Positions 13,785 to 61,312 of a DNA stretch of 64,000 nt are shown in pieces. The position numbers were made by a program, and so were the translations under genes. Where the stretch lies: assembly GCF_058153355.1 (NCBI RefSeq), contig NZ_CM177019.1. The stretch is one strand, 5' to 3'. Under the pieces are notes generated by a model, which was not told the origin of the DNA, did not search any database, and saw only the letters and a program-made list of their open reading frames with translations. Every line of letters starts with the position of its first letter. Position 1 is the first letter of the stretch.

Positions 13785-15107
<1,323 letters not shown>

Positions 15108-15253
15108 TTATGGGGTACCTGCGGCCTTAAAATAACACCCAGACAACATCACAGAAATGTACCTGGATCATAATTGAAACAAAAAGGTTAAAAAGTTTGA
15201 GCTGGCTCGCACAAACCAGCACTTTTTAAAGTTTTGTAATCAGTTTGGGGTAG

Positions 15254-17242
15254 CTACTTTTCTTCCAGGTAACTCTCTTCGAAGATTTCAATAGGGAGTG
15301 GGCGAGCAAAAAGGAAGCCCTGGGCAATACCAACGCCCGCTTTTGCCAGCCAGTCGCGTTGTGCTTCAGTCTCCACGCCTTCGGCAATCATTTGTAAGTT
15401 CAGGCTTTGCGCCAACATGATAATTGCAGCAATCATGCTGCTATCTTCCGGCAAGCCTTCAACAAACATTTTGTCGATTTTTAACACGTCGATTGGCAAC
15501 GATTTCATATGCTGCAGCTGACGCAGCCCTGCGTAGCCCATGCCGAAATCATCCAGCGCCACCCGAACGCCGGCATTACGCAACGGGCGGAGAATTGCCA
15601 CCGCTGCATGAGGGTCGTCAATACGTCGGCTTTCTGTCACTTCCAGAATCAGTGTTCCCGGCTGAATGCGATAGCGGGTTAACAGTTCCAGCATATCCGC
15701 TACCATATTCGGGTGCATTAGTTGCAGCGCTGAGAGGTTTACCGACAAGGGCAACATAATGCCGCGCTCTTGCCAGGCAGCCAGCAGTCGACAGGACTCT
15801 TCCAGCACCCAGTGACCGACGGTAACCATCAGCCCACAGCACTCAATGCGATCGATTAAGCCATCCGGCAGATCCCAACTGCCATCCGGTTGCTGGATAC
15901 GCAGTAACACTTCCGCACTGACCAGTTTACCGCTGGTCATCTCGACCTGTGGCTGTAACCAAATCGCAAACTGATGATTTTCCAGTGCATTAAGGATATC
16001 GCTCTCTTCCGTCAACCGCTGTTGGGCGGCTTCCATCTGCTGCGGATCAAAGAACTGAATCTGATTCTTACCTTTATGGCGAGCGGTAAATGCCGCAGAA
16101 ATAGCGCGACTGTAAAGCTGTTCGGCGGTGAGATCGCCGTAGAACATCGCCACGCCAATGCTACAGTGCGGACGAAGTTGAATACGTTCAATCGGCAGGC
16201 GCTCGCTCATGATAGTGAGCACTTGCTGACCTAAAGTAATAGCATGCCACGGCTCCTGTACACCGTTGGCAATGACAGCAAAGTCATAACCACTAATCTG
16301 CGCGAGGATCATACGTGGCGACAGTACCGATTTGAGTTTTTCCACCAGCGTCAGCAGCAGAATTTCTCGTTGCGCCTCTTTCAGCACGCCCGCAGTATCA
16401 CGCAGGGTTTCACAGGTGATAATCATCAGCGCGGTGGTTTGTTTACGCGCGACAACCTGCTCCAGCATCTCCATCAGCAAGGCTTTGTTCGGCAAATCCG
16501 ACACCGGGAAGCGCATCGCATTTTCGTTCTGTTCTTCATAATGGCGCTGCAGCAATTGCTGGTTGAGGTTGTAACTGCGCACCAGCATACCGATTTCATC
16601 GTCCTGATGCAGACGTGGTAATGCCAGTTGGTGACCAACAAGCTCCTGGGCTGGGATGGCGTTAAGTTCACGAGCAATATTGCGTAACGGATGCAAAATC
16701 AGGCGGTTAATGCACCAGCTAATCGCCACCGTCAATATTAACGACAAAAGTAAGTAAATGGTCACTAACGTTGAGAGGGTGCTCATCACGAACTTATACA
16801 TGCGGAAGGAATCCGCCTGTAGCACCAGATAGGCAATTGGCTGCGGGTTTGCCGGACGTTCCAGCGAGTAAACGCCCAGCGAGATTTGCACCGGTAGCTC
16901 AAACATGCGAGTAACCATTACCGGCACCGGACGCTCTGGAATAAAACTTTTACGCAGCGCCTGGAACTGGTTAGGCAGCACCACATCGGCACGGCTGACC
17001 ACGCCTGCCGGTTTAATGCTGGCAAGAATAGCTTCCGCTTCGGGAATATCGCCTTTCAAAATGGCAGAAGATAAGGGTTCGCGGACAGAGCGAGCAATGC
17101 TTTCCAGTTGCGTAGCCGTGTTATAGCGATTCTGCTGGACCAGATGGAACAGCAAAACGGTGCAAAAAATAAAAACGAACACCAGGACAACGGCTGCCAC
17201 CATTGCCATCTGCTTGATTGTTAACGAGCGACTTACGCGCAA
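15254..17242 (-). CDS. pdeK: Membrane c-di-GMP phosphodiesterase (HAMP–GGDEF-like–EAL)
   Basis: 662-aa ORF; N-terminal TM segments, C-terminal EAL domain; start codon not verified. Confidence 0.8.
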
Positions 17243-17323
17243 ATTGTCTCCCCCCGGAAATCCCAGATTGCCGCCCGAGTATACCCGATCGCAGCGGCAT
17301 TAAGAGAGGCGCTATCTGAAAAC

Positions 17324-20300
17324 TTACCAGTCGGCGTAAGGTATCAGCGGCTGCGGCGGTAAATCCATGTCACCCTGCCATCCGGCGGCGGAATAACGTA
17401 CGTAGAGCAGGAAATGGCTGGGCGCGTAATCTTTCGCCTGCTGGATATCAATTGCTGTACCGACAAACCAGTTGGATGTGACGCGACGCTCAAGTAATGC
17501 CCGCGCCGTATAGCCAAAGCCCTGACTGCTGCCGCCATCGTTGGATTGCCGCGCAGCTTCTTCCTGCCAGTCAGTCGGGATCAGATTCATCAGCGGATAC
17601 CGCGGCATGGTTTTGGTGCGCGAATGCGACCACGAACCAGACGCCCCCAGCTCCCACGACCAGTTTTCTGTCCGCTCACGCCACATCACCGGAATGGCAA
17701 ACGACAGGTATTCCTGCGGGCTGTAGTAACCGCCCTGACCGAGTGAGTACCCACTCAGATCTTTGTCGTAATGCCAGATCATGTTGTTCAGGCCGATTGT
17801 CACGCGGCGATTGTTCTGGTTGATGACCTTATAGTAATAGCCCGTCATCCAGCGCACGCGCCAGTTATCTTCAACATTTTTACCGGTTAACTGGTCGCCG
17901 CTAAGCGATGCCCAGACGCCGTTTGCTTCACCTTTATCGTAGCTCAGGCTTAGCCCCACGCCGTCGGCACGCACGCCGCCCCATTTTTTCCCGGTATTGC
18001 CTGGGGAGTCTTTTTGCCCGCCAAAGGCCAGCAAAGAACTGGAGATGGGCCGACGATGGGCGTTAACTGTGTAACCCAGCGGCCCGATATCATCGCTGTA
18101 ACTGATGCCGCCGACCACATCCACCACGTTGAAGCCCATCGGCGTGGTGCCGATATCCCAGCTCCAGACGTCATTTCGCCAGCCGACCGCCACGCTGGCA
18201 CCGGAATCCGACTGGCTGCGGTTGCCGCTACAGTCCTGTAATGTACAGGTGCCCCAGTTGTCATCCCATTTGCCATCGGCATTAGTGGAGAAACTGCCGA
18301 CGTTCATATTGACGAAATCACTGCGAAAGAACATCCGCCCGTCAGAATACGGCGCATCCACCTGCAACATGGTAGTGTGCGCTTTCAGATCGGAGTAACC
18401 ACCGGTGCCGCTCGACCCCCAGTAATCGTGCTCGAGGGTGACGTTAAGATCCTGCTGGCGGTAGAGATCTGCCGCATCGCTGCGCACGCCGCGTTTCAGC
18501 CAGTCATCTTTCTCGTCGTTACGAGTCAGCCGGGTAAAGGTGTCGTTATCCTGCGGACGCGTCGTGGTCACACCGGATGCAACCATCGCGTCTTTGTAGG
18601 TTTCCAGCGCCTGCGTTGGATCGCCCGCCTGTGCTTCAAACTTCGCACCGTCGCGCAGTACCATCGCGCTTTCCATCGACGGTGGCTGAGATTTTGCCTG
18701 CGGGATCAGCTTGTTAAACGTCTGCTGCGCCGCTGCGGTATCGCCAAGCTGCGCCTGCGCCAGCGCCACGCGCCGCTGTGTGTTCAGGGAGGCGTTATCG
18801 GAGGCAGGCAGTTTCGCCAGTTGGCTACGTGCCGCCGCTTTGTCACCGGCAGCGATATCCACTTCCGTCAGGCCAAGAATGGCATCAGCGTTAGTTGGCT
18901 CCCGCGTCAGGACATTCTGATATGCAGCACGGGCAGCAGCGTAATCACGTCGTTGTTGCGCCCAGTCAGCCAGCGTCAGATCAATACGCGAGGAAGGCGG
19001 TTGCTGGCGCAGCATCGCTGCTGCTTCTGCCTCTTTACCGTTTTCTCGCAGGCGATTAGCGGTTTCCAGCACCTGGTCGCTTTGCAGCCGATTAACCAGC
19101 TCCTGAATATTGCTGTTCCACTGGGCACGCGGCAGGCTGTTGATATGCGCCAGTGCCGCTCTGTCCTGGTCGTGACCTGAAAGGTACAGCCCGTAAGCGT
19201 AAACCTGCTCCGGGTCGTTCGGCTTCTGCTGCACGAGATTGCGCATTAACGTATCGGCCTGGCTGCGTTGTCCGGCCTGCCAGAGATCCTGCGAAAGTCG
19301 GTAAGTAATCCATACACTGCCGGGGTCCAGTGCCAGTCGTTGCCGCTGAAGTGCTGCTGCCTGCGCCCATTTGCCCTGGTTTTCCAGTGCCTCTGCCTGC
19401 TGTGCCAGACGATCGTTTTGCAGGCTACGTTCGATATCATCAATGCTGCGCCGCTGGCTGGCAGAGAGCGAGGCGATAAACGCTTCGGCTTTTTCTGGCG
19501 ATTGCTGGCGGTAAATATTCGCTAGCCCGCGCACGGCGTTGGTATTGCCGCTGTCCATGCGCAGCGTCTGCTGGTAATAGCGTTCGGCGGCGGAATAATC
19601 TTTTCGCGCCATCGCCACATCGCCCAGCCCCAACACCGCATAGCTGTCGGTGTTATCGACACTGCGCGCCTGCTGGAACAGGCGTTCTGCCCGGTCAGGA
19701 TTATTGGCTTTCAGCGCGGCATCACCCTGCTGGATCGCCAGCCAGTAGCGGTTTACTTTCAGCAGACTGTTCCATTTGTCGTTGTTGCTGCTGTGCGGGT
19801 CCAGTGCGAGGGCTTTTTCCAGATTCGCCACCGCATTGGCGCGATCGCCTTTCTGAGAATACGCCTGGCCCAGCGCCCCCAGTGCCTCACTGTCTTTCGG
19901 GTTCGCCCGCACTGCCTGTTGTAGTTCGGGAATGGCTTTACCCGCCATGCCAGAGTCCACTGCCGCTAAACCTTGCGCACGAGCGCGGAAAGCAGGGTCG
20001 GCCAGCTGTTTTTGCTGTTCTGCCAGTTGCGATTGCGCAGCAGCTACGCTGTCGCCATCGCTAAAGATAGAGAGATATTTTTTCAGCGCCTGCACGCTGG
20101 CATCGCTGACAGGCATGTCTTTAATCTGCCCGTACCAGATTTTAGAGGCTCCCTCGCGCCCGGCGTTCGATTTCGCCATCTGCTCCAGTACAGCAAAACC
20201 TTCATCACGCCGATCGCTACTAAACAGCAATAGCGCCAGATTGTTTTGCAGGCCCGTATTGCCCGGCGTATCCGCATTGATGCGTTTTAGCTGATTAATC

Positions 20301-20797
20301 GCTTCGCCACGGCGAGCCGGAATTTTCGCCACCGTACTCCAGTACTCGACGGCAATGTCACCTTCCGGCGGCGCACCGTTGAACAGCTTGTTGTAACTCG
20401 CCACAGCTTCTTCTGCATGACCGGTAGTCGCCTGCAATCTTGCCTGTTGCAGTGCCTGACGACCATCCGGAGTAGAAAGTAACATTGTGGTCCGCGACGA
20501 TTTATACGCATTTGAACTCGGCGCTAACTGCGACAGCCGATCGAGCTGTTTTTGCGCGCCATCAATATCGCCCTGACGTAACAGAGAACGGAAACGGGCG
20601 GCAACGACGTCCGGGTTATTCGGATCAATAAGTTCCAGCCGATACAACGACTGTTGCACCAGGTCTTCACGATGGGTCGCTTCGCCTAACCGAACTTGCT
20701 CCAGCAACTGTTGCTGAGCGGTTGGTGCTGCCTCGACCATCGGCATGACGGCCAGACCGAGGGAAAGCGTGAATATGTTTAGTGTGAATTTGCGCAT
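17324..20797 (-). CDS. bcsC: Cellulose synthase outer-membrane subunit BcsC (TPR repeats plus beta-barrel)
   Basis: 1157-aa ORF; repeated TPR-like segments; C-terminal W-ending barrel. Confidence 0.9.
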
Positions 20798-21885
20798 TCC
20801 TGGCCCCAGTCAGGTAATAACTCACCTTTTGTCGAGAAGCGGAAACGGTGTTGATCCCAGCCTTGTCCAAACAGGGTCAGCACATAGTTGTAATAGGCAT
20901 CGCTGCCGGGAAAGTTATCGGCCACGCGCTGGCGCTGAACGGCCTGTGCATCGCGGTTTTGTAAAAAGGGCAGCATGGCGGCAGAAAAACCGACCGGTCC
21001 TTTACCCTGCGCTTTCCCCGTAGCCACATCGACTTTTTCCGGCGGATAGCCGTTTTTCTCGGTGAATGTCGCCATCGGTTTAAACCGGTTGAGCATCCGC
21101 GCTTTTTGCGGATCGCTGTCAGGCATCATGCCTACCCACATGTAAACACGGATAGCGTCGTAGCTGCTGATCAATGTTTTTTCGGCTTTTAGCTGCCAGC
21201 CTTTGTCTTTCTCATAGCGCACCCAGTCTGGTGAAAAGCCTTTCGGGGCGGTTTCCAGCAATAAACGTTGATTGGTTTCGCGCAGCGTAGTCCACGGCGC
21301 GCCAAAGCGGGTGAAATACTGCGCCAGCGTCGGCGGCAGGTAGCTGGGGTTAAAACGCCAGCTGTTATCCTCAGCAAATCCCACTTTGCCCGGCAACAAC
21401 ATGGAACCCAGCCCAGGCACCGTCACTACTTCCTCCCGCGCAATACGTTTTAACAACGCGCTGCCGATATCCGTATAACGCTGCTCTTTCCACAACCGCC
21501 CCGCCTCCAGCAATGACCAGGCCATCCAGACATCACCATCAGAGGCCGAATTGCTGTCCAGCACTTCCCACTTACTGTTCTCTTTCTTGCCCCACAGCCA
21601 GGCGGGCAAATGTTCTTTTAAAGAACCCTGAGCGAGATTGTTCTGCGTCCAGTCGAGAATATTATCGAAAGCTGCACGGTCGTTAGCCGCCAGGGCAAAG
21701 AACATGCCGTAACTTTGCCCTTCGGAGGTGGTGATTTTGCGCGCGTCGCTGGGGTCGATGACGCGCCCTTCCTGACTGATGTAATCCTTTTTGAACTGCT
21801 CCCAAGCAGGCCAGTTGCAGGCAGCCTGAACACTAAAGGCAGCCAGCAGCAGCATCGTCACGAGTCCACTACGCAACACATTCAT
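20779..21885 (-). CDS. bcsZ: Periplasmic endo-1,4-beta-glucanase (GH8)
   Basis: ORF 20779..21891; start at MNVLRSG (368 aa); overlaps bcsC start by 19 nt. Confidence 0.85.
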
Positions 21886-21891
21886 CTTCAA

Positions 21892-24231
21892 TTACTCGTT
21901 ATCCGGGTTAAGACGACGACGGCTGATAATACGCAGCAAACGCCACAGTACCCAGGCCAGCAGCACGACGCTGATTGCCGCCAGCACCGCCAGCAGAATC
22001 GGATGGTTTGCCAGCGCATACCATAAGCGTTCGAACCACGGCAGATGGCCAACGTAATAGACGTCGCCAACACGCAGGCTATTGATACCGGACTCGCGGA
22101 TCACCGCGACCGAGCCGAACATGGTGGCGCGTTTGCCGCTATCGTTCACCGCATCGTTAAGCATTTCATAACCGCGTGGGCTATCTGCCAGCAGCGCAAT
22201 CACGCTACGCTGGTCGTTATACGGCGACTGGAAGCCAATCACCGCTGCCATCGCACCGGAAGAGGTCAGCGTTGATTGAGTTTCTGCCGCGCGATCGCTC
22301 TCGTCCGGCACAATGCCGGGGAACGGGGTCTGGCGCATCGGCGTTTTCACCCAGCTTTCGGTCGCCTGCACCAACAGGTCGATCTGCTTGTCGTCTTTCA
22401 GTTTGTCCGGGATACCACCGATGATCATGATGTCGGCATCTTTGCCCTGAATGGTGCTGCCATCATCGGTCACCGTCAGGTTAATCGCCGGGAAGCCCGT
22501 CTGTGCGCCGATAAAGCCAACGGTATTCAGCAAGGTTTCCATCTGTGCTTCGTTAGGCGCTTTCGGCATCACGGTGATGGTTTGTGACAGATCCGCCATC
22601 CGGCTGAACGGGAAGCCCGCGTTAGCAAATGCGCGTAGATCCGGCATCGGGATGAAGTGGTAATACTTCGAGAAGTCGATGATGGAGTCGTCACCAATCA
22701 CCACATGATTCTGCACCGGCTGGAAGGTAATACAGTTATCCACCGAACCGCCCGGCATCGGGTTCATATACTCAAAGTCAAACCGCAACTGGTTGGTCGC
22801 GCCCAGTTTCAGCGCCGGAATAGAGACATCCGTTTTGCCATCCAGCAAACCTTGTAATACAGGAATACGCAGCAGCAGGCGGTTCGCCTCCTGTTTACTG
22901 CTCAGGTTGAAGGATTGCAGGAACTGGTTATTCAGGCTGATATCCATCCGCGAACTGTCTTTCACCGGCGGCATGGTGTAGCGATAGTTGATATCCATAT
23001 CAATGCCGGTACTGCGCATCAGGTAGAGATCCGGCGGCAGGTTTAGCGAAACGTTAATCGCTGCTGGCTCAAGACCGCTGGATTGTAACTGTTCTTCATA
23101 GGTTTTCAGTTCACCAAAGGTGACCGGACGATCGGTACGCACCCAGTTCGGCGCATCGTACGGCTTACGCGGTAGCAGCGGTTTCACTTCATTCACTACC
23201 ACGCTTTCACCACGGAACAGAATGTTACCCTGAGCGATACCTTTCGCTGCCTGCAACAGGTCTTTGTCGTCACGACCAAAGACCACCAGCAGTTTGACGT
23301 AAGGATTCTGTGGATGGTTGATCATCTCAATCACCGGGGCTTTTACCGCCGGATGATCGCGCAGGAAGTCCGGGCGTTTGTCATTAGTGGCAAAAACGAT
23401 GGCATTGCGATCCGGCAGTTGGTTATAGAGCACCGGGAAGTTCTGCCCACGCCAGCCAGAACGCGAACCAAACCACGAGGCGACAATGGCAGATGCTTGT
23501 TGCAGCCCAACATCCGGCGCACCCGCAAAGACCATCGGCAAGGTGTTGGTGCGGTTATCACGCGGGTCAAAGAATGGTACCGGGAAGTGTGACAGATCAT
23601 TCTTCACATTCAGGGTCTGATAGGTCAGATCCAGTCCACTGCTCCGCCCAACATCCAGCCAAAGCGTGGTGCTGGCCGGGTTTTCGCACACGTCCTGATA
23701 ATGACCGACAAACTCCAGCCGCACACGGTTGAAGTCGGTAATAAACAGTGGGTTAATTGGCATTTGTGCCAGCGTTTTTTTACCCAACTGTTCTTTGGTC
23801 ACTGGCAGCACGCCCATCAGTTCATCATTGAGATAAACCTTTAACTGCGACTGGACAGGCAGTAACGATGGCGATGGCGTGTATTCGAGGTTGAGCATCG
23901 CCTTCGTCACCACTTCATCGCTGCGCATACCAAACTCAATGCTGCCGTTCGGGTTAATGCCACGTAGCACCATGCTGCCCGGCGGTGGCGCAATTTGCGC
24001 AAAGGTCAGCTTCACATCACGCGAAGGACCGTTCTGCGCCACGATGGGGGCATCAGCGCCCTGCACGCCCGGCATCACTTGCCCCACCTGCGGATTTTGT
24101 TCCGTCTGGGCGGCTACAGCTGGCTCAGCATTGATCAGTGGTTGCGTTGCTGGCGTCGCCTGCGTCATGAAAGAGGGGAACGCACTCATCCCCATAGCCA
24201 CTGCACAAATCCAGAATAGTTTTCTTTTCAT
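21892..24231 (-). CDS. bcsB: Cellulose synthase periplasmic subunit BcsB
   Basis: ORF 21892..24318; start set at the signal peptide MKRKLFWICAVAMGMSA (779 aa). Confidence 0.85.
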   Translation of the reverse strand: MKRKLFWICAVAMGMSAFPSFMTQATPATQPLINAEPAVAAQTEQNPQVGQVMPGVQGADAPIVAQNGPSRDVKLTFAQIAPPPGSMVLRGINPNGSIEFGMRSDEVVTKAMLNLEYTPSPSLLPVQSQLKVYLNDELMGVLPVTKEQLGKKTLAQMPINPLFITDFNRVRLEFVGHYQDVCENPASTTLWLDVGRSSGLDLTYQTLNVKNDLSHFPVPFFDPRDNRTNTLPMVFAGAPDVGLQQASAIVASWFGSRSGWRGQNFPVLYNQLPDRNAIVFATNDKRPDFLRDHPAVKAPVIEMINHPQNPYVKLLVVFGRDDKDLLQAAKGIAQGNILFRGESVVVNEVKPLLPRKPYDAPNWVRTDRPVTFGELKTYEEQLQSSGLEPAAINVSLNLPPDLYLMRSTGIDMDINYRYTMPPVKDSSRMDISLNNQFLQSFNLSSKQEANRLLLRIPVLQGLLDGKTDVSIPALKLGATNQLRFDFEYMNPMPGGSVDNCITFQPVQNHVVIGDDSIIDFSKYYHFIPMPDLRAFANAGFPFSRMADLSQTITVMPKAPNEAQMETLLNTVGFIGAQTGFPAINLTVTDDGSTIQGKDADIMIIGGIPDKLKDDKQIDLLVQATESWVKTPMRQTPFPGIVPDESDRAAETQSTLTSSGAMAAVIGFQSPYNDQRSVIALLADSPRGYEMLNDAVNDSGKRATMFGSVAVIRESGINSLRVGDVYYVGHLPWFERLWYALANHPILLAVLAAISVVLLAWVLWRLLRIISRRRLNPDNE

Positions 24232-24241
24232 CGCGTTATCA

Positions 24242-26860
24242 TCATTGTTGAGCCAAAGCCTGATCCGATGGTTGTGCCGTTTCGCTCCGCGCCGGGCGGC
24301 GCGGAATAAACGATACAACCCAGGAAACCAGAGAAGTCAGCACACGGAATATGCCCTTCACCGAAGAAGGCGCAAACTCCGCCAGATGGCGGTAGCCACG
24401 GAAGCCGAGCTTCAGAATATCCAGCAGACTTTCCAGCGGCTTATCTTCCGGATAGCTGTCCTGCCAGAGCGCCCATGTATCCGCACGGGCAAACGTACAC
24501 TGCACAAAATCGATATGTTGCTGGGTGGTGAGCGGCATTAATTTCAGCCCAACTTCATTACCCATCACGCGCGCCACCTGGGCCGGGAAGACGTATTCTT
24601 GCTGACCGCGTTTAAGCAACAGATTCACTTTCTGCCCTTCCAGAATCTGTGCCTGACCGTTGATCTTGATCCCCAAACCACCGTCGGAGAAATCCTGAAC
24701 GGTACACGAGAAGAGGTGACCATCTTCGCGGGCAATTGCCGCGGGCATCGTCATCTCCACGCGGTGCGATCGGCGAACCTGTTTGCTTTCTACCGATACC
24801 GCTACCGCACCACCGAGAATAATCAGGTTGTAGAACACCCACACCATACTGACGATGACAGTGAGCATCTCGGTTGGCGGGCCGTAGAAGTAACGCCAGA
24901 TACCGACCGCAATACCGACCAGGTTGAGCAATACCAGGAAAATGTAGGGCCGTGAGATCACCCAGTCGACGTACTCTTCTTCCACCAGTCCACCTTTGGC
25001 GGTGACGTTAAATTTGCCTTTGTGCGGGTTAATCAGCGCCACCAGCGTCGGTGGTGCGATATACCACGCCAGCACCGTTTCGTAGATTTCACTCCAGAAA
25101 GAGTGGCGATATTTGCCCTGGATCTTCGAGTTGGTCAGGCTGGCGTGAATCATATGCGGCAGCACGAACAGGGCGATCATCAACGCTGGCGCATAGATGA
25201 TGTAGGCATGCAGCAGCAGGAACGCCAGCGGCGCAGTCAGGAAGATCAGTCTTGGAATGCCCGACAAGAAATGGAACATGGCGTTGACGTAGCACAGCCG
25301 CTGAGCAAACTTCAGCCCTTTACCGGTGAGCGGGTTATCAAGACGGAAGATTTGCACCATCCCCCGCGCCCAGCGAATACGTTGGCCGATATGCGCCGAC
25401 AGACTTTCGGTCGCCAGCCCCGCCGCCTGTGGAATACGCATATACGCTGAAGTGTAGCCACGACGGTGCAGACGCAGAGAAGTATGCGCATCTTCGGTTA
25501 CCGTTTCGACGGCAATACCGCCAATCTCATCCAGCGGCTTACGACGAATCACCGCACAGGAACCGCAGAAGAAAGTGGCATCCCACATATCATTGCCGTC
25601 CTGCACCAGACCATAAAACAGCGTGCCTTCGTTTGGCGTTTTACGAAAACGTCCCAGGTTACGTTCAAACGGATCCGGTGAGAAGAAGTGGTGCGGCGTC
25701 TGCATCATCGCCAACTGTTTTTCTTTCAGGAACCAGCCCATGGTCATTTGCAGGAATGAGCGCGTCGGCACGTGGTCGCAGTCGAAAATCGACACGAACT
25801 CGCCTTTGGCATATTTCAGCGCATTGTTGATGTTGCCTGCTTTCGCATGTTCATGAGTGGTACGGGCGATATATTTCACCCCCACGTTTTGTGCAAACTG
25901 GCGAAACTCTTCCCTGCCGCCGTCATCGAGGATCCAGATGTTCAGCTTGTCTTTCGGCCAGTCGATACCCAGCGAGGCGTAAATCGTATTTTTCACCACG
26001 TTGAGATCTTCGTTGTAAGTCGGGACAAAGATATCTACCGACGGCCACAGCGACATATCTTTCGGCAACGGTACTGGCTGACGATTCAGCGGCCATACCA
26101 CCTGGAAGTAGCCGAGCACCAGCACAATCCACGCGTACGTTTCAGCGAACAGCAGTATAAGCCCGCACACCAGACTGACCGGATCGTCCCAGTTCAGCGT
26201 AGAGGTGTAGCGCCACCAGATATAACGGCAAGAAACGGTCAGCGACAGCACAATCAACATTAGCGCCGAGAAGCGCCCCGGCATCCGCCGTACGATCAGC
26301 GCTACACCCCACAGCAGCATCAGGAAGATAAACTGCGCCAGCGGGTTAAACGGCTGGGTAACGCAGATTAACGCCAGAATCAGCGAGAAGGTGACGATGA
26401 TACCGAGGATCAACCGCCGCGCCCCGGCGCTCAAATGGCCGAGTTCTTTTTTCTCATCGAGATGCTGTGTTTTATGGCTAACGCGCTCAGGCAGCTCGTT
26501 CATCCATTGATGGTAACGTCCACGAATATTCTGCAGACCTGAAAATGTCCGCCTGCGGGGTTTCGGCGTTTCTTTGCGCGATGTACCGATCAGTAACCAG
26601 CAGGTTTGAATGAGATAACGGACCGGGTCCAGCGGACGCGGACGCGAGGCGTTGATATGCGGATACAGGTTTTTATGTTCTGCGCGAATACGCTGCCAGC
26701 GCGGGTGCTCCAGCGGAATAAAAATCCAGGCCAGGATCAACCAAAAACAGCCGAGCGTCGCGCTGAAAGCCGACGCGCCGTGACGACGATAATCGCGATA
26801 ACGCCCGATAAGCCGCGCGTTGACCGGCGGGATAAGCAACCACCGGGTCAGGATACTCAT
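24242..26860 (-). CDS. bcsA: Cellulose synthase catalytic subunit BcsA (GT2 plus PilZ)
   Basis: ORF 24242..26908; start set at MSILTRWLL (872 aa); QxxRW-type GT2 motifs; start overlaps bcsQ stop by 4 nt. Confidence 0.9.
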   Translation of the reverse strand: MSILTRWLLIPPVNARLIGRYRDYRRHGASAFSATLGCFWLILAWIFIPLEHPRWQRIRAEHKNLYPHINASRPRPLDPVRYLIQTCWLLIGTSRKETPKPRRRTFSGLQNIRGRYHQWMNELPERVSHKTQHLDEKKELGHLSAGARRLILGIIVTFSLILALICVTQPFNPLAQFIFLMLLWGVALIVRRMPGRFSALMLIVLSLTVSCRYIWWRYTSTLNWDDPVSLVCGLILLFAETYAWIVLVLGYFQVVWPLNRQPVPLPKDMSLWPSVDIFVPTYNEDLNVVKNTIYASLGIDWPKDKLNIWILDDGGREEFRQFAQNVGVKYIARTTHEHAKAGNINNALKYAKGEFVSIFDCDHVPTRSFLQMTMGWFLKEKQLAMMQTPHHFFSPDPFERNLGRFRKTPNEGTLFYGLVQDGNDMWDATFFCGSCAVIRRKPLDEIGGIAVETVTEDAHTSLRLHRRGYTSAYMRIPQAAGLATESLSAHIGQRIRWARGMVQIFRLDNPLTGKGLKFAQRLCYVNAMFHFLSGIPRLIFLTAPLAFLLLHAYIIYAPALMIALFVLPHMIHASLTNSKIQGKYRHSFWSEIYETVLAWYIAPPTLVALINPHKGKFNVTAKGGLVEEEYVDWVISRPYIFLVLLNLVGIAVGIWRYFYGPPTEMLTVIVSMVWVFYNLIILGGAVAVSVESKQVRRSHRVEMTMPAAIAREDGHLFSCTVQDFSDGGLGIKINGQAQILEGQKVNLLLKRGQQEYVFPAQVARVMGNEVGLKLMPLTTQQHIDFVQCTFARADTWALWQDSYPEDKPLESLLDILKLGFRGYRHLAEFAPSSVKGIFRVLTSLVSWVVSFIPRRPARSETAQPSDQALAQQ

Positions 26861-27609
26861 GATGCACTCCCGACTGGCGTTTTCAGCCCGGAATAGTTCA
26901 ACAGGCACCAGTTAGCCAGCGTCAGTATCTCTTCAGCCGCCAGCGCATCACTGCGGTATTCGCCGACTGGTTGCTTAGCCGCCAGGCATTGAGCCATCGC
27001 TTCATCACGATGAATGAGCATTGGCAGTAATCGGCGCTGGCTTTGCAACCAAAGCTGGTAAATATCGTCCTGAACCTGACTGCCGATACGGAAGTCATTA
27101 ATCAAAATATGCGCGCCATCCGGCAGCGCCTGCTGATGCAGCCGGATATGGCAGTTGGCATCCACATTGACGATTGCCAGCGAGTGATCGCACAAACTCA
27201 GCAGCTGGTGGGTTATCTGCGAGGCATCACGCGGTAAGTCGATTAAAATCCACTGGTAACGCCCGCTGGCTTTTAGTTGCTGTAAGCCGGAGCAAATATC
27301 GCTCAGCCGGGTTTGCCAGTGCTGTGGATTTTCTTGTTCTTCAATGGATAACTGACCAAAAGGCAGCAAATCGAGTTGCGAGGTATAGCGCAACCCGGCG
27401 TCACGCCAGTCCTGACCGTCCAGCATGGCTCTGGCCCAGCCCTGACGGTGGGTAAAATCAACGTTAAATGACAGGCGCAACAAGTTGTCCGGGCAGGCAT
27501 CGACCACCAGGACATCTTCTCCCAACATTTGTAATGACCAGGCTAATGCGGCAGTGATGGTTGTTGTTCCCACGCCTCCCCGCACCCCCTGCAATCCCAG
27601 TACGGCCAT
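26857..27609 (-). CDS. bcsQ: Cellulose biosynthesis ParA/MinD-like ATPase BcsQ, full length
   Basis: Uninterrupted 250-aa ORF starting MAVLGLQGVRGGVGTTTIT (deviant Walker A); codon 6 is TTG at 27592..27594. Confidence 0.85.
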   Translation of the reverse strand: MAVLGLQGVRGGVGTTTITAALAWSLQMLGEDVLVVDACPDNLLRLSFNVDFTHRQGWARAMLDGQDWRDAGLRYTSQLDLLPFGQLSIEEQENPQHWQTRLSDICSGLQQLKASGRYQWILIDLPRDASQITHQLLSLCDHSLAIVNVDANCHIRLHQQALPDGAHILINDFRIGSQVQDDIYQLWLQSQRRLLPMLIHRDEAMAQCLAAKQPVGEYRSDALAAEEILTLANWCLLNYSGLKTPVGSAS

Positions 27610-27620
27610 TCACCAATCCC

Positions 27621-27809
27621 CTACTTTTGTTGCGCAAACTCTGCCAGCAACGGCCAGCGTTTTAATGCCGCGGCCAACTGTTCGCGTTGGGAAATATCGG
27701 CATAATCAATATCAGGCAGTGAAAACGCCTGCTTTAACGCCAAAATATCATTCTGGAAGATATAGCCTATCGCGGGATCAGGCAGAGTATCTGGTTCATT
27801 GTTATTCAT
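27621..27809 (-). CDS. bcsR: Small cellulose biosynthesis protein BcsR
   Basis: ORF 27621..27851; start set at MNNNEPDTLPD (62 aa). Confidence 0.7.
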   Translation of the reverse strand: MNNNEPDTLPDPAIGYIFQNDILALKQAFSLPDIDYADISQREQLAAALKRWPLLAEFAQQK

Positions 27810-27851
27810 TTGCTTGATCCCTATGAAATAACCGTACCGTTCATGAGACAA

Positions 27852-28080
27852 TTCTAACCGTGAGCATTTCGCCGGTTTATTGTTTACGGCGAGACGGGAA
27901 TTTGCTCACTTTTTGACTTTCCGTTACGCAACAAAAAAAGTTAAAAACGAAAAGACTAAAATCACACGTCTTGTGACCTGCTAAATTGATTCACATGCTA
28001 AATCTGATAAGTTTTAATTTCAATGGTAGGTTTATTTCTTAGCTTTCGCTAGTAAACTGATAATCAGACAAAATGATGAC
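27852..28080. promoter_or_regulatory. Divergent intergenic control region between bcsRQABZC and bcsEFG
   Basis: About 230 bp of AT-rich non-coding sequence between two divergently oriented operon starts; no individual promoter mapped. Confidence 0.4.
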
Positions 28081-29652
28081 ATGAGGGACATTGTGGACCC
28101 TGTATTCTCTATCGGTATCTCATCATTATGGGATGAGCTGCGACATATGCCAGCAGGCGGCGTCTGGTGGTTTAACGTCGATCGCCATGAAGATGCTATC
28201 AGTCTGGCGAATCAAACAATTGCATCCCAGGCTGAAACCGCACACGTCGCGGTCATTAGCATGGACAGCGATCCGGCGAAAATCTTTCAATTAGATGATT
28301 CTCAAGGGCCGGAAAAAATAAAATTATTTTCAATGCTAAATCATGAAAAAGGTCTATACTATTTGGCCCGTGATTTGCAGTGTTCTATTGATCCCAATAA
28401 TTACCTTTTTATTCTTGTTTGCGCAAATAACGCATGGCAAAACATTCCTGCCGAGCGGCTTCGCTCATGGTTGGATAAAATGAATAAATGGAGCAGGTTA
28501 AACCATTGTTCGCTTTTGGTAATTAATCCCGGAAATAATAACGATAAACAATTTTCATTGTTGCTTGAGGAATACCGTTCACTTTTTGGTCTTGCCAGTT
28601 TGCGTTTTCAGGGCGACCAACATTTGCTGGATATTGCCTTCTGGTGCAACGAAAAAGGGGTCAGCGCCCGTCAGCAGCTTAGCGTTCAGCAACAAAAAGG
28701 TATCTGGACATTAGTTCAAAGCGAAGAGGCGGAGATCCAACCACGCAGCGACGAAAAACGCATTCTGAGTAATGTTGCTGTACTGGAAGGTGCGCCGCCG
28801 CTATCGGAACACTGGCAACTGTTCAACAATAACGAAGTTCTGTTCAATGAAGCCCGTACCGCTCAGGCGGCGACGGTGGTCTTTTCTTTACAGCAAAATG
28901 CGCAAATCGAGCCACTGGCCCGCAGCATTCATACTCTGCGTCGCCAGCGCGGTAGTGCGATGAAAATCCTCGTACGGGAAAATACCGCAAGCCTGCGCGC
29001 CACCGATGAACGTTTGTTATTGGCCTGCGGTGCAAATATGGTTATCCCGTGGAATGCGCCACTCTCCCGCTGTCTGACGATGATCGAAAGCGTGCAAGGG
29101 CAGAAGTTTAGTCGCTATGTGCCGGAAGATATCACTACCTTGCTGTCAATGACCCAGCCGCTCAAACTACGTGGTTTCCAGAAGTGGGATGTGTTCTGTA
29201 ATGCCGTTAACAACATGATGAATAACCCTCTCTTGCCTGCACATGGTAAAGGCGTTCTGATTGCCCTACGTCCGGTACCGGGTATCCGCGTTGAGCAAGC
29301 CCTGACGCTGTGTCGCCCTAACCGTACCGGCGATATCATGACCATTGGCGGTAATCGGCTGGTGCTGTTTCTCTCATTCTGTCGGATTAACGATCTGGAT
29401 ACCGCGTTGAATCATATTTTCCCATTGCCGACTGGCGACATTTTCTCAAACCGTATGGTCTGGTTTGAAGATGATCAAATCAGTGCCGAGCTGGTGCAGA
29501 TGCGCCTGCTTGCTCCAGAACAATGGGGCATGCCGCTGCCTTTAACGCAAAGTTCTAAACCGGTCATCAATGCCGAGCACGATGGTCGCCACTGGCGAAG
29601 AATACCAGAACCAATGCGACTGTTAGATGATACTGTGGAGCGCTCATCATGA
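28081..29652 (+). CDS. bcsE: Cellulose biosynthesis protein BcsE (c-di-GMP binding)
   Basis: 523-aa ORF. Confidence 0.85.
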
Positions 29653-29840
29653 TGACCATCAGCGATATCATTGAAATTATTGTCGTTTGCGCACTGATAT
29701 TTTTCCCGCTGGGCTATCTGGCGCGGCACTCTTTGCGACGCATTCGCGACACCTTACGTTTGTTCTTTGCTAAACCTCGTTATGTTAAACCGGCCGGGAC
29801 GTTACGCCGCACGGAAAAAGCCAGGGCAACCAAAAAATGA
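29649..29840 (+). CDS. bcsF: Small membrane protein BcsF
   Basis: 63-aa hydrophobic ORF overlapping bcsE stop and bcsG start by 4 nt each. Confidence 0.7.
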
Positions 29841-31516
29841 CTCAATTTACGCAAAATACCGCCATGCCTTCTTCCCTCTGGCAATACTGGCGCGGCCTTT
29901 CCGGCTGGAACTTCTATTTTCTGGTTAAGTTCGGCCTGTTGTGGGCGGGATATCTTAACTTCCATCCGCTCCTCAATCTGGTGTTTGCCGCGTTTCTGCT
30001 GATGCCCATTCCGCGCTACAGCCTGCATCGCTTACGCCACTGGATTGCCCTGCCGATCGGCTTTGCTTTGTTCTGGCATGACACCTGGTTGCCTGGCCCG
30101 GAAAGCATAATGAGCCAGGGTTCGCAGGTGGCGGGGTTCAGTACCGATTATTTAATCGACCTTGTCACACGCTTTATTAACTGGCAGATGATTGGGGCCA
30201 TTTTTGTTTTATTAGTGGCCTGGTTATTCCTGTCACAATGGATTCGCATTACCGTTTTTGTGGTTGCCATTCTGCTATGGCTGAACGTACTTACCCTGGC
30301 GGGACCAAGTTTCTCCTTGTGGCCTGCCGGTCAACCGACGACCACTGTAACAACGACGGGTGGTAACGCAGCGGCAACCGTTGCGGCGACGGGTGGCGCA
30401 CCGGTAGTGGGTGATATGCCCGCACAAACTGCACCGCCAACAACGGCGAACCTTAACGCCTGGCTGAATAATTTCTATAACGCGGAGGCGAAACGTAAAT
30501 CGACCTTCCCGTCTTCGCTGCCCGCTGATGCTCAGCCATTTGAACTACTGGTGATTAATATCTGTTCGCTTTCCTGGTCGGATATTGAAGCCGCCGGGTT
30601 GATGTCGCATCCGCTGTGGTCGCATTTCGATATTGAGTTCAAGAACTTTAACTCCGCCACCTCCTACAGTGGCCCGGCGGCGATCCGTTTACTGCGCGCC
30701 AGCTGCGGGCAGACTTCGCACACTAATCTGTATCAACCGGCAAATAACGACTGCTATCTGTTTGATAACCTGTCGAAACTGGGCTTTACCCAGCACCTGA
30801 TGATGGGACATAACGGCCAGTTCGGCGGTTTTTTGAAAGAAGTTCGCGAAAATGGCGGCATGCAGACCGAATTGATGGATCAAACAAATCTGCCGGTTAT
30901 TTTGCTGGGCTTTGATGGTTCGCCGGTTTATGACGATACCGCCGTGCTTAACCGCTGGCTGGACGTTACCGAAAAAGATAAAAACAGCCGTAGTGCCACG
31001 TTCTACAACACGCTTCCACTGCATGACGGCAACCATTATCCGGGCGTCAGCAAAACAGCGGATTACAAAGCGCGAGCGCAGAAATTCTTTGATGAGCTGG
31101 ACGCCTTCTTTACTGAACTGGAGAAATCGGGTCGTAAAGTGATGGTGGTAGTGGTGCCGGAACACGGTGGCGCGCTGAAGGGCGACAGAATGCAGGTATC
31201 TGGCCTACGTGATATCCCTAGCCCGTCTATCACAGACGTCCCCGTTGGGGTGAAATTCTTCGGCATGAAGGCACCACATCAGGGGGCACCGATTGTCATC
31301 GACCAACCGAGCAGCTTCCTGGCTATCTCCGATCTGGTGGTTCGCGTTCTTGATGGTAAGATTTTCACCGAAGACAATGTTGACTGGAAAAAACTCACCA
31401 GTGGGTTGCCACAAACAGCACCGGTCTCCGAGAACTCAAATGCAGTGGTTATTCAATACCAAGATAAACCGTACGTTCGCCTGAACGGCGGCGACTGGGT
31501 GCCTTACCCGCAATAA
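29837..31516 (+). CDS. bcsG: Cellulose phosphoethanolamine transferase BcsG
   Basis: 559-aa ORF; N-terminal TM segments, C-terminal sulfatase-like domain. Confidence 0.85.
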
Positions 31517-31602: not shown

Positions 31603-31710
31603 TTACTTCCGCTTATTCAGCGAGTTCACGATCAGACTGGCAAGAATGCCAGCAATGACCGGAGCCGCTAAATCATGCCAGAAGGCCATGCCCAGTTCTG
31701 CGAGCGTCAT
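31603..31710 (-). CDS. ldrD: Type I toxin LdrD, small membrane peptide
   Basis: 35-aa ORF MTLAELGMAFWHDLAAPVIAGILASLIVNSLNKRK inside the longer ORF 31603..31845. Confidence 0.7.
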   Translation of the reverse strand: MTLAELGMAFWHDLAAPVIAGILASLIVNSLNKRK

Positions 31711-31757
31711 ATAGCCGCCTCTGTTGTAATGACAACGTTTCGCGGCTATTCTTGAGT

Positions 31758-31824
31758 TGTTTGGGTTCAAGATTAGCCCCCGTGATGTTGTCAGGTGCAT
31801 ACCTGCAACGTGCGGGGGTTTTCT
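31758..31824 (+). ncRNA. rdlD: Candidate antisense RNA RdlD (antitoxin of ldrD); boundaries approximate
   Basis: Plus-strand hairpin CCCCCG...CGGGGG followed by TTTT at 31777..31824, opposite the ldrD leader; position inferred from the known ldr/rdl arrangement. Confidence 0.3.
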
Positions 31825-39889: not shown

Positions 39890-41202
<1,313 letters not shown>

Positions 41203-41410
41203 CATGCCTGCAATCTGGGAAACCGGGGTAGAAAAAAACTTGCAGGCCATAACAGTATCTACGTTCAGATTTGGTCGGTGCCAGAGGATTACTCGCCACT
41301 GCGTGGCTCGCCCTGCGGGCCGTTGCTGACGCAACGTTCTCTCGCTTTGCTCGAGTCGAACCTCTCTGCCCCCGGAGGTTCTTATCCTCTTCAGGTCGCA
41401 GAAAGCAAAA

Positions 41411-53273: not shown

Positions 53274-53426
53274 TTACTCTTTCAATTTGCAGGCTAAAAA
53301 CGCCGCCAGCTCATAATTCTCCTGTTTAATATGCAATTCACACAGTGAATCTCTTATCATCCAGGTGAAAAATAAAAGCGTGAAACAAATCACTATTAAA
53401 GAAAGTAATCTATATTTCTGCGGCAT
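53274..53426 (-). CDS. hokA: Hok-family type I toxin HokA
   Basis: 50-aa ORF MPQKYRLLSLIVICFTLLFFTWMIRDSLCELHIKQENYELAAFLACKLKE. Confidence 0.75.
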   Translation of the reverse strand: MPQKYRLLSLIVICFTLLFFTWMIRDSLCELHIKQENYELAAFLACKLKE

Positions 53427-53486
53427 TCCCAGCCTCCTGTGTTGATTTCCAACGAGTAAGAGGCTAACCTTATGGTGTTCAGGCAT
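53274..53486 (-). CDS. mokA: Overlapping leader reading frame MokA ending at the hokA stop
   Basis: 70-aa ORF containing the hokA frame; called by analogy with hok/mok/sok loci. Confidence 0.5.
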   Translation of the reverse strand: MPEHHKVSLLLVGNQHRRLGMPQKYRLLSLIVICFTLLFFTWMIRDSLCELHIKQENYELAAFLACKLKE

Positions 53487-53704
53487 AGGGTAGCCTCACT
53501 TTGATTTATAGTCAGGTGGGGCTTTTCTCTGTCTGCCTTTCGGTGAATACCTGAGACAAACAGTCTCAAGCACCCGTGGCTATTCTAGCTTAATAAGTTC
53601 TTTTCTTCTCCTTGATATAATCCTAAAAAAATCTCATAAAATTAATATATGAGACAATCTTTATTCAGCAGAAGATTATTAAAGGTTGCTCTATTATTTA
53701 GCGA

Positions 53705-58352: not shown

Positions 58353-58811
58353 TTATTCGCTGTATTCTTCCTGGGTAACCTGTGTTTCTTTTGGTGGGTT
58401 TATTCCGGCATCACGAATATTCTTCTGCACCGCTACTGCACCAAACAAGCTTAAGAAGAAAGCCAGTCCATAAAAACCTTTCTCGCTGAGTAATAACGTC
58501 GCATTCCACAGACCTACCATCAGTAACGCAACAGAGATAATAAAGACAGTCAGGCAGGTCATATAATAAATGGAGGTGGTCGGTATGCCTTCATACTTGT
58601 CCCGAACGGTCTTTTGATAAGATGCCGCAGAAAACAGTCCTAGCACCAGCACGGCAAAATAATATCCTTTTTCATTTAACTGCATCTCTGCATTCCATAG
58701 CCCTAACAGATAGGTAACGATACCACCAACAAGAGCTATCCATGACACAATACTAAATGCCGGAGAATAGGTTGATATTTTGGTAAGCGTCTTATCAGGA
58801 CCGTCTGGCAA
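58353..58811 (-). CDS. yiaA: Inner membrane protein YiaA with 5' end replaced by an IS terminus (chimeric start)
   Basis: ORF reads [10 protein letters not shown] from inside the IS66-family end (58783..58811) into [14 protein letters not shown]...; native start codons MDNKI lie 2.47 kb away at 61253..61267. Confidence 0.65.
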
Positions 58812-58857
58812 ATTCCCGATGCTTTGGACAAAGTATCCACCACTAAATTAATAGTGG

Positions 58858-59286
58858 GTGATAAAAATGTCAGATATACAAAAAAATGCCTCTCCGGGAA
58901 GGCCTAAAGGGTGCCTGAATTATCCTCCTGAATTCAAACAACGACTCATAGAAGCATCATTCCAGCCAGGTGTTTCAATTTCCAGACTGGCCCTGGACAA
59001 TGGTATTAATGCCAATCTGTTGTTCAAATGGCGTCAGAAATGGCGGCAGGGGAAGATAAAATTGCCATCATCAGAATCAGGCAGAGAATCTCAGTTAATT
59101 CCTGTCACTATTGATGCCCAACTCCCAACTGCTCCGGCTAATGAGCCACTGACCGCAAGACCGTCAGTAACACCGGAAATACACAGCATCTCCTGTGAGA
59201 TTACGTTCAGAAACGGCACCCTTCGGTTGAACGGGGCAGTGAATGAAAATCTGCTGTCCTTGCTTATACAGGAGCTGAGACGGTGA
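58858..59286 (+). CDS. IS66-family accessory protein (orfA/TnpA-like)
   Basis: 142-aa ORF; stop overlaps next ORF start (ATGA-type coupling). Confidence 0.75.
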   Translation: MIKMSDIQKNASPGRPKGCLNYPPEFKQRLIEASFQPGVSISRLALDNGINANLLFKWRQKWRQGKIKLPSSESGRESQLIPVTIDAQLPTAPANEPLTARPSVTPEIHSISCEITFRNGTLRLNGAVNENLLSLLIQELRR

Positions 59287-59630
59287 TATCTCTCCCTGCA
59301 GGTTCGCGTATCTGGCTGGTTGCAGGTATCACCGATATGCGAAATGGCTTTAACGGCCTGGCCTCAAAAGTTCAGAACGTCCTGAAGGATGACCCGTTCT
59401 CCGGGCATCTGTTCATCTTCCGCGGACGCCGGGGTGACCAGATAAAAGTGTTGTGGGCTGACAGTGACGGACTGTGCCTCTTCACCAGACGCCTGGAGCG
59501 GGGCCGCTTCGTCTGGCCGGTCACCCGTGACGGCAAGGTGCACCTTACTCCGGCCCAGTTATCCATGCTTCTTGAGGGCATCGACTGGAAACACCCGAAA
59601 CGAACGGAACGCGCTGGCATCCGCATATAA
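59283..59630 (+). CDS. IS66-family accessory protein (orfB/TnpB-like)
   Basis: 115-aa ORF MISLPAGSRIWLVAGITDMRNGFNGLA..., characteristic IS66 orf2. Confidence 0.8.
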   Translation: MISLPAGSRIWLVAGITDMRNGFNGLASKVQNVLKDDPFSGHLFIFRGRRGDQIKVLWADSDGLCLFTRRLERGRFVWPVTRDGKVHLTPAQLSMLLEGIDWKHPKRTERAGIRI

Positions 59631-59649
59631 CCCGTTGTAAAGTGAGGAT

Positions 59650-61221
59650 ATGGACACCTCACTTGCTCATGAGAATGCCCGCCTGCGGGCACTGTTGCAG
59701 ACGCAACAGGACACCATCCGCCAGATGGCGAAATACAACCGCCTGCTCTCACAGCGGGTGGCGGCTTATGCTTCCGAAATCAACCGGCTGAAGGCGCTGG
59801 TTGCAAAACTGCAGCGCATGCAGTTCGGTAAAAGCTCAGAAAAACTTCGTGCAAAAACCGAACGGCAGATACAGGAAGCACAGGAGCGAATCAGCGCTCT
59901 TCAGGAAGAAATGGCGGAAACGCTGGGTGAGCAATATGACCCGGTACTGCCATCTCCCCTGCGCCAGTCTTCAGCCCGTAAACCGTTACCTGCCTCACTT
60001 CCCCGTGAAACCCGGGTCATCCGTCCGGAAGAGGAATGCTGCCCGGCCTGTGGTGGCGAACTCAGTTCTCTGGGATGTGATGTGTCAGAGCAACTGGAGC
60101 TTATCAGCAGCGCCTTTAAGGTTATCGAAACACAACGTCCGAAACTGGCCTGTTGCCGGTGCGACCATATCGTGCAGGCTCCGGTGCCTTCAAAACCCAT
60201 TGCACGCAGTTATGCCGGAGCGGGGCTTCTGGCCCATGTTGTCGCTGGAAAATATGCAGACCATCTGCCGTTATACCGCCAGTCAGAAATATACCGTCGT
60301 CAGGGCGTGGAGCTGAGCCGTGCCACACTGGGGCGCTGGACAGGTGCTGTTGCTGAACTGCTGGAACCGCTGTATGACATCCTGCGCCAGTATGTGCTGA
60401 TGCCCGGTAAAGTCCATGCCGATGATATCCCCGTTCCGGTCCAGGAGCCGGGCAGCGGTAAAACAAGGACTGCCCGGCTGTGGGTCTACGTTCGTGATGA
60501 CCGTAACGCCGGTTCGGAAATGCCTCCGGCGGTCTGGTTCGCGTACAGCCCGGACCGGAAAGGTATCCATCCACAGAATCATCTGGCCGGTTACAGCGGA
60601 GTGCTTCAGGCCGATGCTTACGGTGGTTACCGGGCGTTGTACGAATCCGGCAGAATAACGGAAGCCGCATGTATGGCTCATGCCCGGAGAAAAATCCACG
60701 ATGTGCATGCAAGAGTGCCCACCGACATCACCACGGAAGCCCTGCAGCGTATCGGTGAACTGTATGCCATCGAGGCAGAGGTCCGGGGCTGTTCAGCAGA
60801 ACAGCGTCTGGCGGCAAGAAAAGCCAGAGCCGCGCCACTGATGCAGTCACTGTATGACTGGATACAGCAACAGATGAAAACACTGTCGCGTCACTCGGAC
60901 ACGGCAAAAGCGTTCGCATACCTGCTGAAACAGTGGGATGCACTGAACGTGTACTGCAGTAATGGCTGGGTGGAAATCGACAACAACATCGCAGAGAACG
61001 CCTTACGGGGAGTGGCCGTAGGCCGGAAAAACTGGCTCTTCGCGGGTTCTGACAGCGGTGGTGAACATGCTGCGGTGTTGTACTCGCTGATCGGCACATG
61101 CCGTCTGAACAATGTGGAGCCAGAAAAGTGGCTGCGTTACGTCATTGAACATATCCAGGACTGGCCGGCAAACCGGGTACGCGATCTGTTGCCCTGGAAA
61201 GTTGATCTGAGCTCTCAGTAA
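59650..61221 (+). CDS. IS66-family transposase (TnpC)
   Basis: 523-aa ORF with N-terminal leucine-zipper-like region, CxxC pairs and DDE-type core. Confidence 0.85.
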
Positions 61222-61312
61222 ATATCAATACGGTTCTGGCGAGCCGCTTACATATTTTGTTGTCCATCACAGTATTCCTTTCATTCCTGAATGTGTAAGA
61301 GCTTTATGTTGC

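Follow-up and report, generated by a model that had tools for sequence, protein, structure and literature searches.

The bcsQ gene in a 64,000-nucleotide stretch of Escherichia coli DNA (contig NZ_CM177019.1 of NCBI RefSeq assembly GCF_058153355.1; the whole stretch is called the window here) is most probably, at a probability that we put at about 0.93, the ordinary wild-type gene of a natural isolate, set in a complete E. coli-type cellulose secretion cluster. This cluster is made up of bcsRQABZC, running divergently from bcsEFG, with pdeK alongside (Table 1). Read directly on the minus strand, downwards from position 27609, bcsQ begins ATG GCC GTA CTG GGA TTG CAG GGG, and its translation, 250 residues starting with MAVLGLQGVRGGVGTTT, carries a terminal stop only and none internally. 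The K-12-type null allele (TAG, 17T>A) is absent from this gene, codon 6 being TTG by direct reading. An earlier note on the same DNA had drawn attention to this codon and to the unbroken minus-strand frame of 250 residues, and the reading, the translation and the family match described below bear it out on both.

The open reading frame cannot be put down to chance, because it matches the NCBIfam equivalog for BcsQ, NF007460, over residues 1-250 of 250 with 539 bits, against a cut-off of 399. BcsQ also matches TIGR03371 (293.9 bits, cut-off 157.85), and Pfam PF06564 (CBP_BcsQ) is on record for a product identical to the protein of the window, the exact sequence of which is found on 584 public contigs. 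Residues 8-17, GVRGGVGTTT, make up an N-terminal nucleotide-binding loop that is the same as in crystallised BcsQ, and the N-terminus gives weak matches to the ParA and MinD families. The protein thus has the features of a SIMIBI/MinD-like fold with an N-terminal nucleotide-binding loop, and it is predicted to bind adenosine triphosphate. The crystallised E. coli protein (strain 1094, BcsRQ, PDB 6YBU and 6YAR) has the same residue as the window at 246 of 250 positions. Between the protein of the window and that of 1094 there are four substitutions, N32D, N172D, E207Q and K249A, and the differing residues D172 and A249 of the window are those of K-12 too. With the wild-type bcsQ of 1094, or of the repaired K-12 strain AR3110, the gene has in common its length of 250 residues, TTG at codon 6 and its position between bcsR and bcsA; all three genes lie on the minus strand, and bcsQ and bcsA overlap by 4 nt.

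The K-12 allele is as the earlier note gives it. In MG1655 (NC_000913.3) bcsQ reads ATG GCC GTA CTG GGA TAG and is annotated as a pseudogene (b3534); its locus and length are as in the window, at 97.1% nucleotide identity, but K-12 has a premature stop and is cellulose-negative, whereas the window has a sense codon (PMC7397504, PMC5944007). The change, 17T>A or TTG to TAG, arose in the common ancestor of K-12 (PMC5944007). The effect that the note ascribes to it likewise agrees with the literature, in which cellulose synthesis is reported to be lost with TAG and regained on a change of TAG to TTG (PMC7397504; PMC5944007); W3110 repaired in this way is the cellulose-proficient strain AR3110 (PMC7397504). 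With the codon-6 stop BcsQ is lost, and there may be a polar effect on bcsA as well (PMC5944007).

Which of the two alleles is the anomaly? We compared codon 6 across 5,426 complete E. coli genomes with 55-nt probes that carry the single-nucleotide polymorphism (SNP) at position 28, so that every 28-nt megablast seed must span it. Of these genomes, 5,303 contain the bcsQ region as such. The TTG probe of the window matches 4,898, about 90%, and the TAG probe of K-12 matches 349, all at 100% identity. Among the TAG carriers, the best 60 and an even sample of 60 rows of the 349 are all K-12-type chromosomes of 4.46-4.79 Mb; those listed include MG1655, W3110-like strains, DH5alpha, DH1, J53, C600, HB101, MC4100, BW25113, XL1-Blue, TG1, O16:H48 strains and transconjugants. 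Judged by this census, TTG is the species-wide wild type, and TAG, the exception, is a mutation acquired in the lineage of the K-12 laboratory strains. An intact bcsQ is therefore the expected state; it is already known and fully described. The comparison with K-12 and other genomes that the earlier note had called for thus supports its reading of the codon, while the importance it attached to an intact bcsQ is overstated, given that TTG is the allele of 4,898 of the genomes. For pipelines and readers that take K-12 as their reference, it is the K-12 stop, not TTG, that should be treated as anomalous.

Some natural isolate may nevertheless carry the K-12 codon-6 stop, among the many of the sequence type (ST) 10 complex for which a 'truncated bcsQ' has been reported, positions not being given (PMC10881479). 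ST10, ST167, ST617 and ST744 are listed there with 'truncated.bcsQ', and ST167, ST617 and ST744 additionally with a truncated bcsZ (PMC10881479). As bcsZ is not truncated in K-12, the haplotype of these last three differs from that of K-12.

TAG and TTG are one base apart, and this is the sole point in favour of a quite different origin of the codon, a secondary reversion of a K-12-like TAG in a descendant of K-12. Such a reversion has next to no probability. Of the 753 nt of bcsQ, 22 differ between the window and K-12; the adjoining genes of the bcs region have diverged from K-12 by 1.5-4.5%, except bcsF, which is identical in nucleotide sequence. The window carries IS4-, IS621- and IS66-family insertion sequence (IS) elements that are not in K-12, and an IS150 of K-12 is missing from it. 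Moreover, the TTG allele of the 4,898 genomes occurs in all lineages. We regard descent from K-12 with reversion of TAG as refuted by this divergence and by the different IS content. One base in 23,474 separates the window from contig AAXEGZ010000048.1 of the draft assembly GCA_015332025.1, and likewise from the SRR8656992 assembly. The closest complete genomes, WL297 and 2013C-4282, show 99.2% identity over 20 kb, most E. coli about 97.8%.

The rest of the locus is as complete as bcsQ. All nine Bcs proteins score above their NCBIfam equivalog cut-offs and are matched end to end, and all nine bcs genes and pdeK agree with K-12 in length and in their start and stop codons and are free of internal stops, which upholds the claim that bcsR, bcsA, bcsB, bcsZ, bcsC, bcsE, bcsF and bcsG are uninterrupted. 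BcsA differs from K-12 at eight positions, all outside motifs; DCD360, FFCGS430, TED455 and QRIRW493 are present, as are RRSHR696 and DFSDGG723 of PilZ. From established knowledge of BcsA we take DCD360, TED455 and QRIRW493 to represent the glycosyltransferase motifs D, DxD, TED and QxxRW, and the two of PilZ to represent RxxxR and D/NxSxxG, through which PilZ would bind cyclic dimeric guanosine monophosphate (c-di-GMP). BcsE has its RxxD sites, RATD306 and RTGD415, and BcsG has C243, S278, H396, E442 and H443, all as in K-12; by structural work on the two proteins, the former would be I-sites and the latter catalytic and Zn-site residues. The only differences of BcsG from K-12 are L58I, S344T and E489D, and BcsR has the single difference V23L. 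For BcsQ, BcsA, BcsR, BcsZ, BcsF and BcsG, the number of public contigs with the exact sequence ranges from 560 to at least 1000 (560 for BcsA; at least 1000 each for BcsR, BcsZ and BcsG).

Table 1. Features of the bcs locus, with positions counted from the first letter of the window.
Feature	Position	Strand	Length	Description
bcsQ	26857..27609	-	250 codons	Intact; predicted SIMIBI-type ATPase of the cellulose secretion system
bcsQ codon 6	27592..27594	-		TTG (Leu) in the window, TAG in K-12; the SNP is window position 27593
bcsR (yhjR)	27621..27809	-	62 aa	First gene of bcsRQABZC; NF040717, 75.8 bits
bcsA	24242..26860	-	872 aa	Catalytic cellulose synthase with PilZ domain; NF008558, 1791 bits over 1-872
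bcsB	21892..24231	-	779 aa	Periplasmic, tail-anchored co-subunit; NF008325, 1383 bits, full length; no internal stop
bcsB codon 517	22681..22683	-		ATC (Ile), ACC (Thr) in other E. coli
bcsZ	20779..21885	-	368 aa	Periplasmic endoglucanase of glycoside hydrolase family 8; NF008305, 596 bits; E55 present
bcsC	17324..20797	-	1157 aa	Tetratricopeptide repeats and outer-membrane channel; NF008520, 2196 bits over 1-1157; no internal stop
bcsC divergent patch	17785..19784			Carries BcsC A522V, E593A, T666S and S933G; from a histogram of differences
bcsE	28081..29652	+	523 aa	c-di-GMP-binding regulator; NF011619, 1186 bits over 1-523
bcsF	29649..29840	+	63 aa	TIGR03493, 116 bits
bcsG	29837..31516	+	559 aa	Phosphoethanolamine transferase; TIGR03368, 819 bits
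pdeK (hmsP/yhjK)	15254..17242	-	662 aa	c-di-GMP phosphodiesterase adjoining the bcs operon; intact
bcsR-bcsE divergent intergenic region	27810..28080		271 nt	Presumed promoter region of both operons

What is the part of bcsQ in such a system? BcsR and BcsQ, the latter a SIMIBI-family ATPase, form a cytosolic complex that is required to assemble and activate the BcsA-BcsB synthase; c-di-GMP on the PilZ domain of BcsA leads to the polymerisation of uridine diphosphate glucose by BcsA, BcsB forms a periplasmic crown, BcsZ trims the glucan in the periplasm, BcsC exports it across the outer membrane, and phosphoethanolamine is added by BcsE, BcsF and BcsG (PMC7840130, PMC7397504). The window has all nine genes of this E. 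coli-type (type II) system, bcsRQABZC and bcsEFG, in the canonical divergent layout with pdeK adjacent, and departs from it in allelic differences only, namely the bcsC patch and BcsB T517I. From the intact frames and the motifs we infer that the strain would make phosphoethanolamine-cellulose. In this respect the claim that the locus is genetically competent stands for the reading frames and the motifs; as a statement on phenotype it does not, in view of BcsB T517I and of the precedent of BL21 and H10407, both taken up below.

A disabling mutation that might have been missed was sought among the rarer alleles of the bcs genes. The exact BcsB, BcsC and BcsE sequences are each on only one or two public contigs. 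Relative to the cluster members and the three closest complete genomes, the candidate rare changes are T517I in BcsB, A522V, E593A, T666S and S933G in BcsC, and V394I in BcsE; H106N, A518T and N206K, also considered as private changes, were rejected, being common to close relatives. The four changes in BcsC fall within a patch that diverges by 2-3% from genomes that are otherwise the nearest to the window, with only 4 nt of difference in the neighbouring pdeK. Over segment 17785-19300 of the patch, three unrelated complete genomes of cattle, food and pig origin, MFDS1022581, MFDS1019527 and N96, show 100% identity, against 98.2% for the next best. The patch is thus likely a recombination import and a natural allele, and the identity in three other genomes led us to reject the four changes as new mutations. 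V394I in BcsE was rejected as a new mutation as well, as the allele is present in 16 genomes. By the same comparisons, T517I in BcsB is the sole substitution in the locus that is private to the window strain.

Several observations weigh against inferring the phenotype and are best taken together, beginning with this substitution. A probe for Ile517 (ATC) matched none of the 5,426 complete E. coli genomes. Low-complexity masking was rejected as the cause, and the null result is taken to be real, because a control probe with the ACC (Thr517) allele matched 5,341 of them. Nor is the change a sequencing error, since at least three independent records from the lineage of the window strain carry Ile517, though this has no bearing on function. 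All 120 Escherichia and Citrobacter homologues have Thr517, within NHVVIGDDS-T-IDFSKYYHF, and the residue is flanked by the near-invariant S516 (120/124) and D519 (117/124) in a set of distant homologues, inside a conserved S-T-[IL]-D-[FL]-S segment. These findings would fit a locus that is intact in its reading frames but attenuated by missense changes, chiefly by T517I disturbing the folding of BcsB or the assembly of its crown, with less cellulose as the outcome. Such attenuation of cellulose production has evolved repeatedly in E. coli (PMC10881479), and missense changes are suspected in the cellulose-negative BL21 and H10407 (PMC5944007). However, the distant set tells against a strong effect. 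As the homologue search reached only Citrobacter, at 85% identity, the deeper column was taken from 124 representatives of 32-75% identity, and here position 517 is T in 82, S in 19, K in 5, R, E and M in 3 each, I and V in 2 each, and D, L, Q, A and Y in one each, that is, Thr or Ser in 101, Ile, Val, Leu or Met in 8 and a charged residue in 12. By this column conservation of the position is moderate, with Ile and other hydrophobic residues among its natural states; furthermore, Thr and Ile are both beta-branched and similar in size. A severe effect of T517I thus seems unlikely, and attenuation of the locus by missense changes is an explanation we consider decidedly improbable. If it were true, T517I would be a natural hypomorph, a subtler version of the convergent cellulose loss in ST95 and other clones, and of modest interest even then. 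Some of the homologue records, from E. coli, Shigella flexneri and Shigella boydii, share a recurrent shorter variant of BcsB, with 718-730 residues in place of the usual 779, apparently the product of an internal deletion.

The remaining observations of this kind concern the step from genes to phenotype. The genes csgD, dgcC and rpoS lie outside the 64-kb window. In BL21 and H10407 the bcs genes are of full length, yet the cellulose or calcofluor signal of these strains is undetectable (PMC5944007), and among 76 common sequence types 74 show loss-of-function mutations in bcs genes (PMC10881479). Open reading frames of bcs genes thus do not equal a cellulose-positive phenotype. The bcs genes could be functional and the strain still cellulose-negative, or positive only conditionally, through regulation from elsewhere in the genome (csgD, dgcC/adrA, rpoS and genes of c-di-GMP turnover), as cellulose requires c-di-GMP made by DgcC under the control of CsgD and RpoS (PMC7397504) and calcofluor-negative strains with complete bcs genes exist (PMC5944007). 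The window itself speaks neither for nor against this: pdeK, which acts as an antagonist locally, is intact and ordinary, and between bcsR and bcsE only three SNPs and 1 nt of length, next to the bcsR start, set the intergenic region apart from that of K-12; in the closest complete genomes this region has the same length of 271 nt. We hold a cellulose-negative or conditional phenotype of this origin to be unlikely. All of these counter-points bear on the phenotype; none contradicts the reading of bcsQ as a wild-type gene.

The role of pdeK has been described (PMC7397504). Its product in the window has the length of that of K-12, with four amino-acid differences, and the GAPES3, GGDEF and EAL domains of Pfam are on record for an identical product. 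The intergenic regions on its two sides, dctA-pdeK (15072-15253, 182 nt) and pdeK-bcsC (17243-17323, 81 nt), are 100% identical to K-12, unlike the adjoining coding sequences of pdeK and bcsC, which differ from it by 2.7% and 4.5%. This suggests either strong constraint on the non-coding DNA or mosaicism.

Further afield, the window holds three insertions that K-12 is without. An IS4-family element (~1556-2981, with an open reading frame at 1622-2968 on the plus strand) lies between treF and yhjB. An IS621-family (IS110-like) element (~39981-41268) lies between dppA and proK, adjoining a match to naRNA4, which derives from repetitive extragenic palindromic elements, at 39898-39979; it encodes an RNA-guided transposase of 326 residues (40173-41153, plus strand), and the 192 nt of its non-coding left end could be the source of a putative bridge RNA. 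IS621-like elements are found in 2,244 of the 5,426 E. coli genomes, with a median of five copies; it is at the dppA-proK site that K-12 has none. An IS66-family element (~58783-61251, with open reading frames at 58858-59286, 59283-59630 and 59650-61221, plus strand) sits in the first few codons of yiaA, with an 8-bp overlap at the junction, and probably disrupts this gene.

Two more loci of the window stand out. The hokA/sokA locus (53424-53575) is uninterrupted, with a full-length Rfam match for sok; in MG1655 it has an IS150, which the window lacks, and sokA is a pseudogene. The bcsG-yhjV intergenic region (31603-31824) has one copy of the type I toxin-antitoxin pair ldrD/rdlD, as in K-12, with ldrD at 31603-31710 on the minus strand (35 residues) and the Rfam match for rdlD at 31759-31824 on the plus strand. 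Two tandem copies are present in WL297 and 2013C-4282 and three in 2020CK-00188, and these two or three copies, against one in the window, account for a difference in length of ~483 bp from the closest relatives.

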